Source of the DNA: Peptococcaceae bacterium BRH_c8a
GTDB taxonomy: Bacteria; Bacillota; Desulfotomaculia; Desulfotomaculales; Desulfallaceae
Length of the DNA: 32,000 nucleotides
NCBI GenBank assembly: GCA_000961575.1
Contig: LADP01000023.1
Location: 56,351 to 88,350, forward strand
Reading direction: 5' to 3'
In this document: piece after piece, positions 3,265 to 31,907 of the stretch
How positions within the stretch are numbered: the stretch's first letter is position 1
Layout of the letters: each line of letters begins with the position of its first letter
The notes under the pieces: model-generated
What the model was told of the DNA's origin: nothing
Seen by the model: the letters and a program-made list of their open reading frames with translations, nothing else
Databases searched by the model: none
Made by a program: the position numbers and the translations under genes

Positions 3265-3511
3265 AAAAAACCAGCCTTCGCGGCGATCCGGTGATATCCG
3301 GAGCGAACGGTGCACCTGGATGCGTTGATTAGCCCGTCATAGCCCCGAATTCATGGCTGCTTAGGGCGTAACCAAACGGGTATGCAGTTTGTGCCATGTG
3401 GTAACAATAACCGGCTCCAATCACAACATTAAGAATTGCAAAAGAGAGCGGAGCGATATCACCGGAGCGCCGCGCCCACTACAACCAACGCTTAAAGTAT
3501 TTTCAGGGTAG
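3265..3511. repeat. Structured repeat family B, long form (MITE-like, with ~160-bp internal segment)
   Basis: The outer 40 bp (aaaaaccagccttcgcggcgatccggtgatatccggagcg) and the last 42 bp (ccgcgcccactacaaccaacgcttaaagtattttcagggtag) match the reverse complement of 11840-11921 at about 95%. The internal segment 3306-3467 is bounded by the inverted repeat CGCGGCGnTCCGGTGATATC. Confidence 0.85.
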
Positions 3512-10249: not shown

Positions 10250-11806
10250 TTAACTTTCCTCCAACGTTGCCGGGTCGATGCGCGGAAACAGCGGCTCGCC
10301 TTTTTTCAGGACGGTGCCGGCGGGAATACCTCCCCAGCGTAGTGAATCCCAGGCATGCAGTTGAGCATGGTTTTCAATGCCCAATAGCGGCCAGGCCCGT
10401 TGCGGCAGTTGGGGGGTAAAAGGTGTTATCATCACGGTGGCCAGGCGCAGCACTTCAGCCACATTGTAAAGTACTGTAAAAAGGCGATCTCGCTTTTGCG
10501 GATCTTTGGCCAGGGCCCAGGGAGCCGTTTCTTCCAAGTACTTATTAGCCCGTCCCACCAACTTTAGTATCGCCGCCAGGGCGCCCGCCAGATCCCGGCG
10601 TTCCATCATTTCTTCCACTATTGGCGGTGTCTCGGCCGCCAGGTCCAGCAGTTCTTGGTCAGGCCCTTCGGGTGCTCCCGGTGCTTGCAATACACCATTA
10701 AAGTACTTATTGGCCATGGCACAGGTGCGGTTAAACAGGTTGCCGAAATCGTTGGCCAGGTCCTGGTTAATCCGGTGCACCATCGATTCCTCTGAATAAT
10801 TGACATCAATACCGAGGGGCATTTCCCTCAGCAGGTAGTAACGAACGGCGTCCACACCGTACTTGTCTATAAGTATCAGTGGATCTACCACATTGCCCTT
10901 GGATTTGCTCATCTTGCCGCTTTCCAGCAGCAGCCAGCCGTGCCCCACCACCTGCTTGGGCAAGGGCAGTCCCACGGCCATCAGGATGATGGGCCAGATA
11001 ACGCTATGGAAGCGCACTATATCCTTGGCCATCAGGTGGATATCTGCCGGCCAGTAACGATGGTACAACGCCTCGTTTTCATGGCCGTAACCCAGAGCGG
11101 AAATGTAGTTGGTCAGGGCGTCCATCCAGACGTAGATGACGTGCTTGGAGTCAAAGGGCACCGGTATGCCCCAGTCAAAGGTTGTGCGGGATACGCATAA
11201 ATCCTCAAGGCCGCTCTTGATAAAGCTGACCATCTCGTTGCGCCGGGACACGGGTTGAATAAAGTTGGGGTTGTCTTCAATGTGTTTAAGCAACCGGTCA
11301 CCAAACTTGGACATTTTGAAAAAATAGCTTTCTTCCTGAAGCAATTCAACAGGCCGGCCGCAGTCCGGGCAATTACCCTCTTCTAAACGCCCTTCCGTCC
11401 AAAAGGTTTCGCATGGTGTGCAATACCAGCCTTCATAACTGTCCTTGTAGATGTCACCCTGGTCGTATAGCTGTTGAAAAATCTTCTGTACTGTCTGCTT
11501 ATGTCTTTCCTCGGTAGTGCGAATGAAGTCGTCGTTACTGATGTTTAAGCTGCGCCACAGGTGCTGGAAACTAATCACTATGCGATCCACGTATTCCTTG
11601 GGAGTCAACCCTCTTTCCTTAGCCGCTCGCTCGATTTTCTGGCCATGTTCATCGGAACCGGTCAAAAAGCGCACGTCATAACCGGTCATCCGTTTATACC
11701 GCGCCATGGCATCAGCGGCTACAGTCGTATAAGCATGACCGATATGCAGCTTGTCGCTGGGGTAGTAAATTGGTGTGGTAATGTAAAACGTTTTTTTGGA
11801 TTCCAT
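10250..11806 (-). CDS. metG: Methionine--tRNA ligase (short form, no C-terminal tRNA-binding domain)
   Basis: HIGHAYT (HIGH) and KMSKSKGN (KMSKS) motifs, and a CPxC...CPDC zinc knuckle. 518 aa. Confidence 0.97.
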   Translation of the reverse strand: MESKKTFYITTPIYYPSDKLHIGHAYTTVAADAMARYKRMTGYDVRFLTGSDEHGQKIERAAKERGLTPKEYVDRIVISFQHLWRSLNISNDDFIRTTEERHKQTVQKIFQQLYDQGDIYKDSYEGWYCTPCETFWTEGRLEEGNCPDCGRPVELLQEESYFFKMSKFGDRLLKHIEDNPNFIQPVSRRNEMVSFIKSGLEDLCVSRTTFDWGIPVPFDSKHVIYVWMDALTNYISALGYGHENEALYHRYWPADIHLMAKDIVRFHSVIWPIILMAVGLPLPKQVVGHGWLLLESGKMSKSKGNVVDPLILIDKYGVDAVRYYLLREMPLGIDVNYSEESMVHRINQDLANDFGNLFNRTCAMANKYFNGVLQAPGAPEGPDQELLDLAAETPPIVEEMMERRDLAGALAAILKLVGRANKYLEETAPWALAKDPQKRDRLFTVLYNVAEVLRLATVMITPFTPQLPQRAWPLLGIENHAQLHAWDSLRWGGIPAGTVLKKGEPLFPRIDPATLEES

Positions 11807-11930: not shown

Positions 11931-12262
11931 AAAATATAAACGCCCCTGGTTTACCCAGGGGCGAATTGTTTCGCGGTACCACCCTAATTTGCCGGCCCCT
12001 TAAAGGGCAAGCCTCGTTTAAGGTACGGGGAGAGTTCCCGATACCCCAAGCCTGATAACGGTGCTTAACCGGTATAGCTTATCGGGAAAGAGCTAGCACT
12101 TAATTGCGCTTTCCGTTCAGCTTACAGTTCCGAAGCCATGTTCAACCCGTTCTCCCCGGCGGGCTTTCACCTGTTCCCGCTCTCTGTACGGCTCTTCCGG
12201 ATTTACTCCCTCTCCATCATCACCGATGTATCTTATGTAAATAAAAAGCTATTAAAAATAAC
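11931..12262 (-). promoter_or_regulatory. T-box riboswitch leader (Met specifier) controlling metG
   Basis: Read on the minus strand. Stem I has AGAGAG...GGTGAAAG. The specifier-loop context is GAAC-AUG-G (AUG = 12139-12137). The canonical T-box sequence AAATTAGGGTGGTACCGCG lies at 12000-11982. The terminator is CGCCCCTGG-gtaa-ACCAGGGGCG + UUUAUAUUUU (11963-11931). Confidence 0.88.
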
Positions 12263-19238: not shown

Positions 19239-19805
19239 TTACAATAACTCGGCCACAAGCTCAGCACCGCGCTCCATAGCCTTAAAATTCATTTCCCGCA
19301 GCTCGGGGTTCTTGTCAAACTTGTAGCCGAGCTTCTTCTCAATGGCTTTTTTGGCGTCGTCCATAGCCACCACACCGGTGGCTTTTAGTACCGCGCCCAT
19401 AATGATCACGTTGAACACGCGGGGGTGCAGTTCTTTCTTGGATACTTCAATGGCTGGAATAGCATATACCTTGTCTGTGTTGGTGGGCAGTTCGTCCTGT
19501 ATGTTTTCAATACCACTGTCATAAACGAAGACTGTTTCGGGACCGACGTACTTTCTGGTGCGAATTACCGCCCGGTCGCTTAGCGCAATTACGATATCGC
19601 CGATTTGAAACTTAGGTGCTCCAATTGCTTCGTCGCCAATCTGCAGATAGGCTACCGAAACGCCGCCCCGCTGCTCCACGCCGAAGTTGGGAATATAAAG
19701 GGCTTCACGCCCCTTTTCGTTAGCGGCCTCGGCTAGGATCTCGGCCACCGACTGGACGCCCTGTCCACCTTCACCGGCTAATACTATTTTTATTGGTTTT
19801 CCCAT
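19239..19805 (-). CDS. 2-oxoacid:ferredoxin oxidoreductase gamma subunit
   Basis: IVLAGEGGQGV...AG.ILA.AA, and FGVEQRGG typical of the POR/KOR gamma family. Confidence 0.9.
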   Translation of the reverse strand: MGKPIKIVLAGEGGQGVQSVAEILAEAANEKGREALYIPNFGVEQRGGVSVAYLQIGDEAIGAPKFQIGDIVIALSDRAVIRTRKYVGPETVFVYDSGIENIQDELPTNTDKVYAIPAIEVSKKELHPRVFNVIIMGAVLKATGVVAMDDAKKAIEKKLGYKFDKNPELREMNFKAMERGAELVAELL

Positions 19806-19807
19806 AT

Positions 19808-20566
19808 TTATTGTCCCTCCTTCTCCCGGGGACCGGGTACTCTGAGTTCCCCTACCTTAAAGTATTTATACATATCTTCTTCTAGAAACTTCCAAGTATC
19901 CTTGGCGTTGGTGCGCCAGTTGGTGGGACACAGGGACAGCGCTTCCACAAAACTAAATCCGTTCCCGGCCATCTGGTTTTCCAGCGCTTTTTTAATATAC
20001 CCCTTTAGTTGTTTCATGTTGGCCACACTACCCCTGGCTACGTACGCCCCTTCCGGAGCAATAGCCGCCACCATTTCCGGACCCTGGGTGGGTGAACCGG
20101 TGGTCTCGGCATCGCGACCGTAAGGAGAAGTTTCAGTTTTCTGGCCCGGCATGGTGGTAGGCGCCATTTGTCCGCCGGTCATGCCATACTGGGTATTATT
20201 GACCAGGATAGCCGTAATGCGTTCGTTACGCGTGGCTGAGCTGACCAGGTGCTGTGCACCGATGGCATATCCGCCGCCGTCGCCCATATAGGCCACACCA
20301 ATAATATCGGAGTTGGCTCGCTTCATGCCGGTAATTACCGGGTTAGTACGACCATGATGAGTTTGTACCGTATCCATATTGAAAAAATCCCACGATAACA
20401 ATGAACAGCCGATATCGCAACCAAAAACGACTTTATCTTGAATACCCAGTTCATCTATAGCCTGTCCCAGGGCTTTGAGCACTAATCCATGTCCACAACC
20501 CGGGCAGAATTTGTGGGGTTTGGTTTCCACGCGCCAGCACTTGGGCATGGCAGGTTGAACTGTCAT
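19808..20566 (-). CDS. 2-oxoacid:ferredoxin oxidoreductase beta subunit (TPP-binding)
   Basis: FCPGCGHG, GCS, GDGG..AIG (TPP-binding GDG), NN..YGMTGGQ. Confidence 0.92.
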   Translation of the reverse strand: MTVQPAMPKCWRVETKPHKFCPGCGHGLVLKALGQAIDELGIQDKVVFGCDIGCSLLSWDFFNMDTVQTHHGRTNPVITGMKRANSDIIGVAYMGDGGGYAIGAQHLVSSATRNERITAILVNNTQYGMTGGQMAPTTMPGQKTETSPYGRDAETTGSPTQGPEMVAAIAPEGAYVARGSVANMKQLKGYIKKALENQMAGNGFSFVEALSLCPTNWRTNAKDTWKFLEEDMYKYFKVGELRVPGPREKEGQ

Positions 20567-20692
20567 TTAACACAGGCCCCCTTTCATTTTCCCTCAGCAA
20601 TAAAAAGATTAAAACATATCTCTTCAGCAAATAAATGTCAAAAACAATGTCTAAGGTCTTTAATAACTTTAACTTTCGGCTTTTGACTATTT

Positions 20693-21781
20693 TTAACCCT
20701 TTATCTCTTTAACCCGGGCAATCACTTCCTCGGAGGTTATGCCCACACCGGGCTTGAACAGGGACAGCATTTCTGCCGTACTGCCGTAGATAACTTCCTT
20801 GACCAAGCGGGCTAACTGGCCTTGGGCTGATTCCACCACCAGCAGTTGTTTTGCCTTGCCTGCCACTTCCTGCAATTCCTTTTCGGGCATCGGACGGAGG
20901 GTAATAGGACGAAAATAGCCAACTTTATAGCCCTGCTCCCGTAAATCCCTGACAGCCATCTTGCAGGCCCGGGACACCACACCGTGGGAAATAATTACCA
21001 GGTCTGCATCTTCGGTGTCAAATGTCTCATGTTCCGCTATTTCAGGTGCCGCCTTGGCGAAATCAGCCAGATAACCTTGCAGCACTTCATACAGTTCTTC
21101 TTCCATATTATAAGTATTTCTCATGTGCTTGGGGGGCCTGTCCACTCCCGGCATACCGGGACGTCCCACATATGCATCGGTGGGCACCATTTCAATACCC
21201 CGTTCGGCCGGGTCGTAAAACGTAAGTGACTCACGCATCTTAGCCTGATAACCGTCACCAAGCACGAAGGTGGGGAAACGATACTTCCAGGCGGTATTAA
21301 AAGATTTAATGGTGTAATCAAACAGTTCCTGGTGTGTAGCAGTGGAATAAACCACCCGCAAGCCTTCGCCGTTACCACCCAGTGTGGTCAGGGTGACCTC
21401 CTGCTGGGAGTAAATTACTGTAGCGGTGGAAGGGCCGCCACGCTGCTGCACCACTACCACGATGGGCAGGCGCATTGCTTCGGCCATACTTATGGGTTCC
21501 TGCATCAGCGTATTACCGGGTCCGGCGGTAGCGGTAAAAGCTCTCCGGCCGGCTAGAACCCCTCCCACCGTGGTGAAACCGGCGGATAACTCGTCCTCGG
21601 TTTGCAGAAATCTGCGCCCATATTTTGGTATCATCCTGGTCCAGTAATGCATAATTTCATTTTGCGGCGTAATAGGATAACCGTACATGATTTCCGCTCC
21701 CGCCGCCAGGGCCGCCCAGGCAACCACTTCATTGCCGGTCACAAACACCCTTTTTTCTCCCTGAATCGGTTTTTCTGGCAT
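20693..21781 (-). CDS. 2-oxoacid:ferredoxin oxidoreductase alpha subunit
   Basis: GNEA/V..AA..AG......YPITP, and the TATAGPG motif. Gene order alpha-beta-gamma-delta. Substrate (2-oxoglutarate, branched-chain 2-oxoacids or pyruvate) cannot be assigned from sequence alone. Confidence 0.92.
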   Translation of the reverse strand: MPEKPIQGEKRVFVTGNEVVAWAALAAGAEIMYGYPITPQNEIMHYWTRMIPKYGRRFLQTEDELSAGFTTVGGVLAGRRAFTATAGPGNTLMQEPISMAEAMRLPIVVVVQQRGGPSTATVIYSQQEVTLTTLGGNGEGLRVVYSTATHQELFDYTIKSFNTAWKYRFPTFVLGDGYQAKMRESLTFYDPAERGIEMVPTDAYVGRPGMPGVDRPPKHMRNTYNMEEELYEVLQGYLADFAKAAPEIAEHETFDTEDADLVIISHGVVSRACKMAVRDLREQGYKVGYFRPITLRPMPEKELQEVAGKAKQLLVVESAQGQLARLVKEVIYGSTAEMLSLFKPGVGITSEEVIARVKEIKG

Positions 21782-26327: not shown

Positions 26328-26597
26328 ACCGCACACCTGCCGTCGAATAATAACTTCCGGGCGTTACCCCTGCAGGTAGCTCAGACCAGGCGCCCTTGCG
26401 GCACCCGGAGTATCTTCCTTAGTGCTGCTTCCGTCAGGATCTGACACGGTTCAAAAGGCTCCGTCGCGCAAGACCCGGCCTTCAACACTCCTTACAGGGG
26501 GCAGACCCCACAAGCCAAACCCTCGGGCAGGAATTCAACCCCGCTATAGCGGATTGCGGGTTCAGGGCACCGCTACCTCCCCGTCTAGTACGGCCAA
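26328..26597 (-). ncRNA. ffs: Signal recognition particle RNA (long Bacillus-type scRNA/ffs)
   Basis: The minus strand reads ...CTAGACGGGGAGGTAGCGGTGCCCTGAACCCGCAATCCGCTATAGCGGGG... and ...GTCAGATCCTGACGGAAGCAGCACTAAGG...GCCGCAAGGGCGCCTGG.... These match the Alu-domain and domain-IV (GGAAGCAGC) blocks of B. subtilis scRNA. It lies directly upstream of dnaX, as in B. subtilis. The ends are approximate. Confidence 0.85.
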
Positions 26598-26632: not shown

Positions 26633-26726
26633 TGGCGGAGAGAGAGGGATTCGAACCCTCGAAACGGTTTCAAGCCGTTTACGCGATTTCCAGTCGCGCG
26701 CCTTCGACCAGCTCAGCCATCTCTCC
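26633..26726 (-). tRNA. tRNA-Ser (anticodon GGA), CCA encoded
   Basis: Minus strand: GGAGAGA acceptor pairs with TCTCTCC. The anticodon stem is CGCGA/TCGCG with loop CTGGAAA. The long variable arm is AACGG...CCGTT. The T-arm is GAGGG-TTCGAAT-CCCTC. It ends GCCA. Confidence 0.93.
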
Positions 26727-31249: not shown

Positions 31250-31669
31250 TTACTTGTTATCAGGAGCAACCTGCTCCTTAAGGTAAAAAAGTCCTCAGAG
31301 ACAACTGCCGTTTTTGCGCACGTCCCCCATACGCGTTTCCTGGCAGGGACAGATGTTCTCCGGCACATTATCGAACCTGCACGGGCAGTAAAAGTCGCCG
31401 TACCGTTCTTTTTTTTGCTTCATGCCATCAATAACCTCATCCTTGTTTTCCCCAAACACATACCCTTTTAACCGGGCGAAAGTATCCACCCGGTCGTTAA
31501 TTTCTTCGTCCGGGGTCTGGGGTTTTTTGCGGGATTTAATTTCGGGTTCGATTGCCTCTATCTCCAACCTGGCCCCGCAAACCGGGCAGATTAACTCTTT
31601 ACCCTTTTCGAGAGGCTCCCGAACCGCAAAACTGACCCGGCAAACCGGGCAATACACTTTATTGTTCAT
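31250..31669 (-). CDS. Zn-ribbon + ferredoxin:thioredoxin reductase catalytic-subunit-like protein; in-frame TGA (31297-31295) proposed to encode selenocysteine
   Basis: ATG 31669 (RBS GGAGG). The N-terminal CPVC...CPVCGARLEI is a LysW-like zinc ribbon. Then ERYGDFYCPCR....ICPC......GSCL-TGA-GLFYLKEQVAPDNK-TAA. The ORF-track version ends at the TGA (31295). The extension to 31250 is my reading (see findings). Confidence 0.6.
31262..31278 (-). promoter_or_regulatory. Candidate bacterial SECIS hairpin
   Basis: AGGAGCA-GGU-UGCUCCU starts 16 nt after the UGA. The GG-containing apical loop is about 23 nt from the UGA. Confidence 0.4.
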
Positions 31670-31907
31670 TCTTAACGGCCTCCAAAATATCATCGGGCTT
31701 AAAGCCATGCACCACCACATCATTAATTACAGTCACCGGGAACGACCTTTTACCGGTGAGTTTTTCTACTTCCGCCAGAACTTGATTTTGTTCTTCGCCA
31801 GCAAGCATATCAACGTCGACGGCCTGATAATTGACCCCTTTTTCATCCAATAACTGTTTTACTTTCTTGCACCACGGACAGGTGGTTAGGGCATATACTT
31901 TGATCAT
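31659..31907 (-). CDS. Glutaredoxin-like / NrdH-like thioredoxin-fold protein (CPWC active site)
   Basis: MIKVYALTTCPWCKKVKQLLDEKGVNYQAVDVD....SFPVTVI...V.GF. ATG 31907 follows RBS GAGGTG. The stop overlaps the FTR-like start by 11 nt. Confidence 0.8.
   Translation of the reverse strand: MIKVYALTTCPWCKKVKQLLDEKGVNYQAVDVDMLAGEEQNQVLAEVEKLTGKRSFPVTVINDVVVHGFKPDDILEAVKNEQ

Follow-up and report, generated by a model that had tools for sequence, protein, structure and literature searches.

A gene on the minus strand of the window (the whole stretch of DNA analyzed here, 32 kb long) very probably encodes a 139-residue selenoprotein, with the UGA at codon 125 read as selenocysteine (Sec), rather than the product of 124 residues that public records list. 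The gene falls into a distinct clade of single-Sec proteins from anaerobic Bacillota that lacks annotation. The basis for this reading is a recoding signature around the UGA, homology of the encoded domains to the catalytic subunit of ferredoxin:thioredoxin reductase (FTR) and to ferredoxin:disulfide reductase (FDR), and a conserved pairing with a glutaredoxin (Grx)-like gene. The features in and around the gene are the following.

31250-31669, minus strand: read-through coding sequence of the predicted FTR/FDR-like selenoprotein; 139 codons, Sec at codon 125, ATG at 31669, TAA at 31252-31250
31295-31297, minus strand: in-frame TGA, the proposed Sec codon (U125), standing where the third Cys pair, C-x-C, has its second Cys
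31250-31294, minus strand: post-UGA coding tail GLFYLKEQVAPDNK and stop; the conserved part is GLFYLKE
31262-31278, minus strand: SECIS-type hairpin; AGGAGCA at 31278-31272, loop GGU at 31271-31269, UGCUCCU at 31268-31262
31301-31387, minus strand: Cys signature of the FTR catalytic domain; C95-P-C97 at 31387-31379, C107-P-C109 at 31351-31343, C123 at 31303-31301
31544-31654, minus strand: N-terminal four-Cys zinc-ribbon or rubredoxin-like domain, residues 6-42; C7, C10, C28, and C31 in CPVC...CPVCG
31659-31907, minus strand: glutaredoxin/YruB/NrdH-like gene; 82 aa from its ATG, CPWC motif, Pfam Glutaredoxin 63 bits
31188-31233, minus strand: intrinsic-terminator-like hairpin of 20 pairs with a T-rich tail; closes the two-gene unit, past the TAA

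Read on the minus strand, the open reading frame starting at the ATG runs to ...RKNGSCL, where it meets the TGA at 31297-31295, and the same frame then continues as GLFYLKEQVAPDNK up to the TAA at 31252-31250, just as an earlier note on this DNA had described. That note had also placed the only strong terminator after the TAA, and the sole terminator-like site on the minus strand is indeed located there, at 31233-31188. The QVAPDNK extension of the tail exists because CAG replaces the stop codon usually present within the hairpin arm. The 124-residue form is the one annotated by gene callers and in RefSeq. Likewise, for Desulfotomaculum copahuensis and Ca. Formimonas warabiya, RefSeq gives the gene as 123-124 residues, without one of its two catalytic residues, and every TGA-form member checked is shortened in public annotation.

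Across 81 species-level loci, including the one in the window, 51 have TGA at the aligned codon and about 30 have a Cys codon (TGC or TGT), and neither TAA nor TAG occurs at this column in the same set. The orthologues that the earlier note had proposed to look for, with either a Cys codon or TGA at this position, therefore exist, and the TGA form is present in 50 other species, among them D. copahuensis, an isolate, and Ca. Formimonas warabiya, whose genome is complete. Among 116 homologues in the protein database, approximately 80 end exactly at ...GxC[LFY], and approximately 35 go on as CxCG[LF][FYW]. Moreover, the motif [GN]-L-F-[HY]-L-[KP]-[EG] is kept after the TGA in the 51 TGA loci with codons that vary synonymously: position +2 is Leu in 47 of the 51 (six codons used), position +3 is Phe in 48 (two codons), and position +5 is Leu in 46 (six codons). 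The locus alignments thus bear out the claim that a conserved [GN]LF tail continues in frame past the TGA. Of the 51 TGA loci, 32 have a second TGA as their true stop. Use of genetic code 4 or 25 was considered and rejected on the grounds of these second-TGA stops and of TGA ending two of the 23 other well-supported genes in the window.

Published criteria for bacterial SECIS elements (bSECIS) call for a loop of 3-9 nt, a stem of 4-16 bp, a G in the first two loop bases, a distance of 16-37 nt from the UGA, and a minimum free energy of at most -7.5 kcal/mol (PMC13188914). The window hairpin, which sits within the last coding codons, has a 7-bp stem that begins 16 nt past the UGA, a GGU loop 23 nt past the UGA, and a folding energy of -9.0 kcal/mol when taken alone. 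The suggestion that it resembles a bacterial SECIS element consequently agrees with the published limits. Considered by itself, it is not significant (z = -1.31; 21 of 200 shuffled sequences fold equally well), and its support therefore rests on comparison with the other loci. All 51 TGA loci carry a hairpin of 6-11 bp whose start lies 16-21 nt past the U of the UGA, with the loop beginning 21-24 nt after the UGA and a G within the first two loop bases. The loops include GUU (30 loci), AGUU (6), GUC (5), and GGU (3). Thus, the geometric bSECIS limits accommodate 51 of 51 loci, and the -7.5 kcal/mol limit is also reached by 38 of 51, counting the uninterrupted stem alone. All eight stem pairs change on both sides in a compensatory manner among the TGA loci, giving a covariation score of 0.36 vs 0.23 for shuffled alignments (0 of 500 reach 0.36) and 0.14-0.19 for slid partners. 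A covariance model matches the window site with E = 3e-8 and, in 479 kb of sequence, gives matches with E < 0.01 at this codon only. Similarly, when the window and 10 kb upstream were filtered for Cys context together with a bSECIS, this TGA was the only match. A hairpin at the fixed position is absent from the Cys loci with the exception of one (L004), which appears to be a recent Sec/Cys switch. A scan of the window against Rfam at the gathering thresholds gave no match in the gene region; elsewhere in the window, it detected SRP RNA, a T-box, and tRNA.

No selA, selB, selC, or selD was found within the 32-kb window or 10 kb upstream. ARAGORN detected no tRNA-Sec in the window or in the related loci L001-L060, a result of little weight given the short flanks. 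Desulfotomaculum reducens, Syntrophomonas wolfei, Moorella, and Carboxydothermus are documented users of Sec (PMC1794560).

A different outcome of the same recoding event can be envisaged, in which SelB and the same hairpin recode the UGA as cysteine, such that the product is an ordinary six-Cys FDR-like protein. The TGA, the SECIS, and the downstream coding sequence fit this possibility equally well, and the host is a Desulfotomaculum-like organism. However, Sec-like tRNA-Cys is described as rare, none was seen in the window or in loci L001-L060, and the related genera are documented Sec users. Furthermore, a benefit of Sec is the simplest explanation for the retention of TGA and SECIS in 51 species. 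Taken together, Cys insertion at this UGA is very unlikely. The TGA could also be a real stop, with the 124-residue product functional without its last Cys and the hairpin serving, e.g., mRNA stability or attenuation. This is the form that gene callers and RefSeq give, TGA is an ordinary stop in the two other window genes referred to above, and Sec insertion is generally inefficient, so that some shortened product is probably made. On the other hand, seven codons after the TGA are conserved as amino acids with synonymous variation in 51 species, no homologue has TAA or TAG here, and the residue lost would belong to the redox-active pair of this family. In addition, no T run follows the hairpin, and the real terminator lies past the TAA. 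Termination as the normal fate of the UGA is hence also highly improbable. Finally, the gene might be a pseudogene, or the TGA an error of sequencing or assembly in an otherwise normal Cys (TGC/TGT) gene, given that TGA is one base away from TGC or TGT and the source is a metagenome-assembled genome. This reading is effectively refuted by a 741-nt stretch including the TGA that is identical in four independent assemblies, and by the same TGA in the 50 other species, including the D. copahuensis isolate and the complete Ca. Formimonas warabiya genome. Insertion of Sec remains the preferred reading.

The read-through product has three Cys pairs, C95-P-C97, C107-P-C109, and C123-L-U125, with Sec in place of the last Cys. 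The columns of the Cys signature are invariant in alignments A1 and A3, and the window and all 80 related loci in which the motif is readable have CPC as their first pair. The Pfam FeThRed_B profile (PF02943, cut-off 22) scores the shortened form at 24.8 bits and the read-through form at 40.5 bits, and the end of the match moves from profile position 80 to 93 of 106. The alignment to the FTR catalytic family accordingly spans the TGA, as had been anticipated. In the same vein, the CyC motifs of PDB 7pwe_A and 4tpu_A align to C-L-TGA, consistent with the assignment of the TGA to the second Cys of CxC. At the N-terminal end, the Pfam Zn_ribbon_LysW profile gives 26.3 bits, slightly under its cut-off of 27. 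A structure was modeled for the Cys orthologue P0004, with a pLDDT of 82 overall and values below 50 in residues 95-106. Foldseek comparison of this model with the PDB returned LysW (TM-score 0.68-0.83 relative to the target), i.e., the zinc ribbon only and no FTR fold, the cluster region being of low confidence.

The best match among solved structures is 7pwe_A ("Ferredoxin-thioredoxin reductase subunit B", 196 aa), with E = 2e-7 for the single sequence and 7e-12 for the profile, over a region covering CPCR...CPC...CyC. This protein is longer, has Cys instead of Sec, and differs in its N-terminal region; no paper on PDB 7PWE was found. The entry 4tpu_A, deposited as "Rubredoxin", is presumably the FDR of M. 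acetivorans, and its homology takes in each of the three Cys pairs (single-sequence E = 2.3e-5, profile E = 5.5e-9). Methanosarcina FDR combines, in a single subunit, an FTRc-like [4Fe-4S] domain and a small four-Cys metal domain, as does the protein predicted here. FDR, however, carries its metal domain at the C-terminus, as a rubredoxin, whereas the present protein has a LysW-like zinc ribbon at the N-terminus and no listed Pfam rubredoxin match. Moreover, FDR has Cys at every position and no Sec, whereas the protein here has U125. The catalytic subunit of plant and cyanobacterial FTR (1dj7_A and 7bzk_A; profile E-values of 2e-4 and 3e-5, respectively) shares the CPC...CPC...CxC signature. 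It differs in the spacing of the Cys pairs and has neither a fused zinc ribbon nor Sec. In addition, plant-type FTR is a heterodimer with a variable subunit, and no gene for such a subunit was seen here; a Pfam scan of the neighboring and other window ORFs detected no FTRv domain. The FTR-like domain noted earlier is thus confirmed, but its nearest kin are FDR-like proteins that carry a fused metal-binding domain, and not plant-type FTR.

The Grx-like gene ends within the reductase gene, overlapping its start by 11 nt. It scores 69 bits against TIGR02196, which is under the cut-off. Of the 81 loci, 78 have a homologue immediately upstream of the reductase gene and on the same strand, and in three loci, there is a TGA at the active-site Cys of the Grx-like gene itself (UPWC). 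Methanosarcina FDR acts on atypical small thioredoxin-/glutaredoxin-like proteins, a feature mirrored here by the adjoining Grx-like gene, and M. barkeri FDR reduces an NrdH-like redoxin according to papers cited in PMC6262447. The Grx-like CPWC protein is the probable substrate redoxin of the reductase. No ribonucleotide reductase genes are present nearby. Neighbors other than the Grx-like gene are not conserved between loci. In this organism, they include MarR, a CarboxypepD_reg-domain protein, and an acyl-CoA synthetase; in the Syntrophomonadaceae clade, they are SerA-like, DUF362/Fer4, and an unknown 314-aa protein.

In FTR-type enzymes, the [4Fe-4S] cluster breaks a disulfide through a bond that it forms with one of the two sulfur atoms. 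Plant-type FTR, where the cluster adjoins the redox-active disulfide, provides the mechanistic template. For the cluster, the electron donor, the substrate, and the chemistry of Sec in the present protein, we infer the following scheme. The hairpin 16 nt downstream would direct SelB and Sec-tRNA to the UGA at codon 125, generating a protein in which a four-Cys N-terminal zinc ribbon is fused to an FTRc/FDR-like catalytic domain. Within the CxC motif, U125 would stand in for the second Cys, the redox-active one beside the cluster. By homology with FTR, C95, C107, C109, and C123 are proposed to hold the [4Fe-4S] cluster, and C97 and U125 would constitute the redox-active pair, here forming a selenenylsulfide. 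By the same analogy, U125 would contact the cluster iron in a one-electron intermediate and may resolve the mixed disulfide with the substrate. Electrons would presumably be donated by ferredoxin or by the enzyme's own N-terminal metal domain. The 11-nt overlap of the two coding sequences would permit translational coupling of the Grx-like gene and the reductase. The ligand and redox roles in this scheme are drawn from knowledge of Synechocystis FTR and from a statement in PMC2398784.

An FTR family containing Sec, which the earlier note had tentatively regarded as undescribed, is in fact known. Selenoproteins resembling the FTR catalytic subunit were reported in 2008 from the GOS marine metagenome (Zhang and Gladyshev, PMC2398784), and the GOS-type family is curated as NCBIfam NF041072, "FtrB family double-selenoprotein". 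This makes the finding considerably less novel than that note implied. The GOS proteins belong to the same domain family as the one discussed here (COG4802/PF02943), Sec replaces the redox-active Cys in C-x-U in both (CIU there and CLU here), and both have a SECIS predicted directly downstream, in each case by bioinformatics only. However, the GOS proteins contain two Sec residues, in CPU and CIU, whereas here, CPC is kept and the second Sec occurs alone. The two share 34% identity over 61 residues, and the NF041072 model scores the present protein at 26.4 bits, far below its cut-off of 160. The GOS form is also shorter (104 aa) and lacks the N-terminal zinc ribbon that is present here, and it stems from marine surface plankton, in contrast to the anaerobic Bacillota of this study.

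On balance, we lean toward the view that the gene represents an undescribed, widespread clade, in at least 51 anaerobic Bacillota species (Desulfotomaculum-, Pelotomaculum-, and Syntrophomonadaceae-labelled), of zinc-ribbon-fused ferredoxin:disulfide reductases with Sec only at the cluster-contacting residue. These enzymes would act through a [4Fe-4S] intermediate with an Fe-Se(Sec) bond and a selenenylsulfide, and their partner would, in a few genomes, also be a selenoprotein (UPWC). If this is true, both active sites of a two-protein relay contain selenium in those few genomes. In light of the 2008 GOS report and NF041072, a Sec-containing FTR is no new idea, and the present finding refines and extends the known picture. 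A dedicated selenoprotein model for the clade would correct dozens of genome records and enlarge the selenoprotein catalogue of anaerobic Bacillota. Moreover, the natural selenium variant, together with its natural Cys orthologues, constitutes a ready system for understanding the role of Sec in cluster-mediated disulfide chemistry.

At the level of sequence, the reductase gene (31669..31250, minus strand), whose product resembles ferredoxin:thioredoxin reductase (FTR) and ferredoxin:disulfide reductase (FDR), bears every mark of a bacterial selenoprotein. The earlier note's description of the in-frame TGA (codon 125, U125), the continuation, the hairpin and the terminator after the TAA proved accurate on rereading the minus strand:

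Start ATG 31669, minus strand: reductase open reading frame before the TGA, reading MNNKVYCPVCRV...YCPCRFDNVPENICPCQETRMGDVRKNGSCL
31297-31295, minus strand: in-frame TGA
To TAA 31252-31250, minus strand: continuation past the TGA in the same frame, reading GLFYLKEQVAPDNK
31278-31262, minus strand: hairpin AGGAGCA-GGU-UGCUCCU of the type directing selenocysteine (Sec) insertion (SECIS), beginning 16 nt past the TGA, its loop 23 nt past the UGA
31233-31188, minus strand: terminator-like structure, the only one on this strand, downstream of the TAA

With the TGA read as Cys, the protein scores 40.5 bits against Pfam FeThRed_B, the FTR catalytic chain (cut-off 22), and reaches position 93 of 106 in the profile. 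For the truncated product the score falls to 24.8 bits and the match ends at position 80, so the alignment crosses the TGA, a check that the earlier note had proposed. Zinc-ribbon families match residues 6-42 (CPVC...CPVCG), with the LysW type scoring highest (26.3 bits; cut-off 27). Among solved structures, the best match by sequence is 7pwe_A ("Ferredoxin-thioredoxin reductase subunit B"; E = 2e-7), followed by 4tpu_A (E = 2e-5), which we take to be the FTR-like, rubredoxin-domain-containing enzyme of Methanosarcina acetivorans. Their gsCyCtLy and gaCyCaLy segments align to gsC-L-TGA-gLf of the reductase, which places the TGA at the second position of the third Cys pair. A profile made from the Cys orthologues extends the matches to classical catalytic chains of FTR (7bzk_A and 1dj7_A), and homology to FTR and FDR catalytic domains covers all three Cys pairs. 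Synechocystis FTR has its Cys ligands at positions 55, 74, 76 and 85 and its redox pair at 57-87. The TGA position is thus the predicted equivalent of Cys87, the cluster-adjacent partner of the redox pair; its earlier assignment to the cluster-proximal second Cys of the CxC motif is supported by the 7pwe_A and 4tpu_A alignment.

Among protein-database homologues (n = 116), about 80 stop exactly at GxC[LFY], mostly at 124 aa, and about 35 run on as C-x-C-G-[LF]-[FYW]. Codons were compared at the DNA level in 80 loci fetched from species-representative genomes, together with the window. Orthologues of both kinds anticipated at the TGA column were found, the aligned codon being TGA in 51 (Sec-type, window included), TGC in 19 and TGT in 10 (Cys-type). 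A neighbour-joining tree shows only Cys in archaeal (Thermoplasmata) and Atribacteria-type sequences and places the Sec forms in one large bacterial clade (labels Desulfotomaculum, Pelotomaculum, Syntrophomonadaceae and Bacillota). Among its members are D. copahuensis, an isolate, and Ca. Formimonas warabiya, whose genome is closed; a few Cys forms are nested within the clade. In RefSeq/GenBank, the TGA forms appear as [quoted passage not shown] or "hypothetical protein" of 123-124 aa; these entries are truncated products.

Each of the 51 TGA loci has an uninterrupted hairpin of 6-11 bp, whose 5′ arm begins 16-21 nt past the U of the UGA and whose loop begins at +24 to +27. Loop sequences are GUU (30), AGUU (6), GUC (5), GGU (3) and a few more, each having G at loop position 1 or 2. 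The bacterial SECIS consensus has a loop of 3-9 nt, a stem of 4-16 bp, a G in the first two loop positions, a UGA-to-loop distance of 16-37 nt and an MFE of at most -7.5 kcal/mol (PMC13188914). Every TGA locus lies within the geometric limits, and 38/51 also pass the energy limit, counting the uninterrupted stem alone. The window hairpin, suggested earlier as a site for SECIS prediction, conforms in both geometry and energy (-9.0 kcal/mol). By itself, it is not significant against shuffles (z = -1.31), so the case rests on comparison among loci. A covariance model built from 50 distinct sequences and searched against 479 kb (window plus loci) gave matches with E < 0.01 at the reductase Sec/Cys codon only. 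In the model-fitted alignment, all eight stem pairs vary on both sides, and covariation scores 0.36, versus 0.23 ± 0.014 when shuffled (0/500 reach 0.36) and 0.14-0.19 with slid partners, a result that holds despite six spurious weak matches in the alignment. Cys-type loci lack a hairpin at the fixed position, with the exception of L004 (TGT), and many have terminators at varied offsets. The L004 hairpin (~3373-3420; GGACAGGUUCUGUCC) is the same as in its Sec-type sisters L011 and L012, and L004 is the sole Cys locus matched by the covariance model (E = 7e-4); this locus looks to have switched recently between Sec and Cys and to have retained its SECIS.

The sequence evidence is also compatible with insertion of Cys at the UGA. 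SelB-dependent insertion by a tRNA-Sec-shaped tRNA-Cys has been reported for D. nigrificans, but such tRNAs are described as rare (PMC11415595), and we regard this reading as improbable. It is just as hard to credit that the TGA is a real stop yielding a functional truncated protein, since the codons downstream are conserved and TAA and TAG are wholly absent from the TGA column. The frame past the TGA in Sec-type loci always reads [GN]-[LF]-[FY]-[HY]-L-[KP]-[EG], with mostly synonymous variation: Leu at +2 in 47/51 (CTT, CTG, CTC, CTA, TTG, TTA), Phe at +3 in 48/51 (TTT, TTC) and Leu at +5 in 46/51 (six codons). Such variation is the signature expected of translation through UGA. A sequencing error or pseudogene can be practically dismissed: 50 other species share the TGA, and the 741 nt spanning the upstream glutaredoxin-like gene, the reductase gene and the terminator show zero differences across four independent assemblies (one ENA subsurface metagenome, two JGI metagenomes and NCBI genome GCA_003512665.1), hence the TGA is not an error.

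The residue following the Sec/Cys position (codon 31294-31292 in the window, compared with the same column in L001-L080) is Gly in 29/29 Cys-type loci; in Sec-type loci it is Asn (34/51), Gly (14, the window among them), Lys (2) or Arg (1). With Asn mostly next to Sec, the base following the UGA is usually A, which may point to an influence of context on UGA decoding or the active site. A second TGA, eight codons past the Sec codon and within the SECIS 5′ arm (GGAG-UGA-GUUUCACUCC), serves as the true stop in 32/51 Sec-type loci; it lies 24 nt beyond the U of the Sec UGA. This codon is CAG in the window (31273-31250 region) and L001, so that translation there crosses the hairpin, lengthening the product by seven residues (QVAPDNK for the window).

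The only conserved neighbour of the reductase gene is the glutaredoxin-like gene, with a homologue at the same position in 78/81 loci, bacterial and archaeal, of both Sec and Cys types. Its product scores 63 bits with Pfam Glutaredoxin and 69 bits with a YruB-family model, under that model's cut-off. Variable neighbours in one subclade are SerA-like, DUF362/Fer4 and an unknown 314-aa protein; others in the window organism are MarR, a CarboxypepD_reg-domain protein and acyl-CoA synthetase. Housekeeping functions make up the remainder of the window (dnaX, recR, tmk, holB, metG with T-box, SRP RNA, PBP, 2-oxoacid:ferredoxin oxidoreductase), and sel genes and tRNA-Sec are absent from these 32 kb. 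The SRP RNA and tRNA-Ser(GGA) adjoin dnaX, ybaB and recR, a region typical of Bacillota housekeeping.

31907..31659, minus strand: glutaredoxin-like gene (82 aa, CPWC), directly upstream of the reductase gene, overlapping its start by 11 nt
11954-12229, minus strand: T-box leader (101 bits; gathering score 93), upstream of metG
10250-11806, minus strand: methionyl-tRNA synthetase gene (metG)
26329-26593, minus strand: large bacterial SRP RNA (216 bits)
26633-26726, minus strand: tRNA-Ser(GGA)
19239-21781, minus strand: 2-oxoacid:ferredoxin oxidoreductase, three adjacent genes (POR_N/PFOR_II, TPP_enzyme_C and POR gamma domains), which might supply the organism with reduced ferredoxin

Three loci (L007, L047 and L067) carry an in-frame TGA at the first active-site Cys of the glutaredoxin-like gene (LYSLST-U-PWCKK; locus position 2790), with a small CAAGC-AGUU-GCUUG-type hairpin ~22 nt downstream. 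In these genomes, the reductase and its putative substrate both appear to be selenoproteins.

A mechanism can be proposed from the FTR/FDR literature (PMC6262447; PMC2398784) and the general chemistry of FTR. C95, C107, C109 and C123 would hold the [4Fe-4S] cluster, with a selenenylsulfide between C97 and U125. A first electron, from ferredoxin or the enzyme's own N-terminal metal centre, would break the C97-U125 bond; U125 would stay attached to the unique iron, and C97 would meanwhile attack the glutaredoxin-like protein's disulfide. A second electron would release U125, which would then resolve the mixed disulfide. Sec at position 125 would be a better leaving group and nucleophile.

Although the earlier note could recall no description of a Sec-containing FTR family, such a family is known: two FTR catalytic-subunit selenoprotein reads were found by Zhang and Gladyshev (2008) in the GOS ocean metagenome survey, one with Sec at both redox-active positions (PMC2398784). 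That read is ...YRYCPUMPLS...ICPCERHHEDIARDGFCIUMFFVSEE. The family, with motif CxU, appears in 2022 and 2026 reviews and has a curated NCBIfam entry, NF041072 ("FtrB family double-selenoprotein"). The window protein, at 26.4 bits against a cut-off of 160, is not a member. It is 34% identical to the GOS selenoprotein over 61 residues, has CPC rather than CPU as its first pair, carries an N-terminal zinc ribbon in contrast to the GOS form, and comes from anaerobic Bacillota instead of marine plankton. The literature searched, in which subscription journals were thinly covered, held no report of the present clade as selenoproteins, and this reductase is missing from the selenoproteome lists of D. 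reducens, S. wolfei, Moorella and Carboxydothermus (PMC1794560). Collectively, the reductase is well supported as a real selenoprotein gene absent from annotation; the concept of a Sec-containing FTR was already published in 2008.
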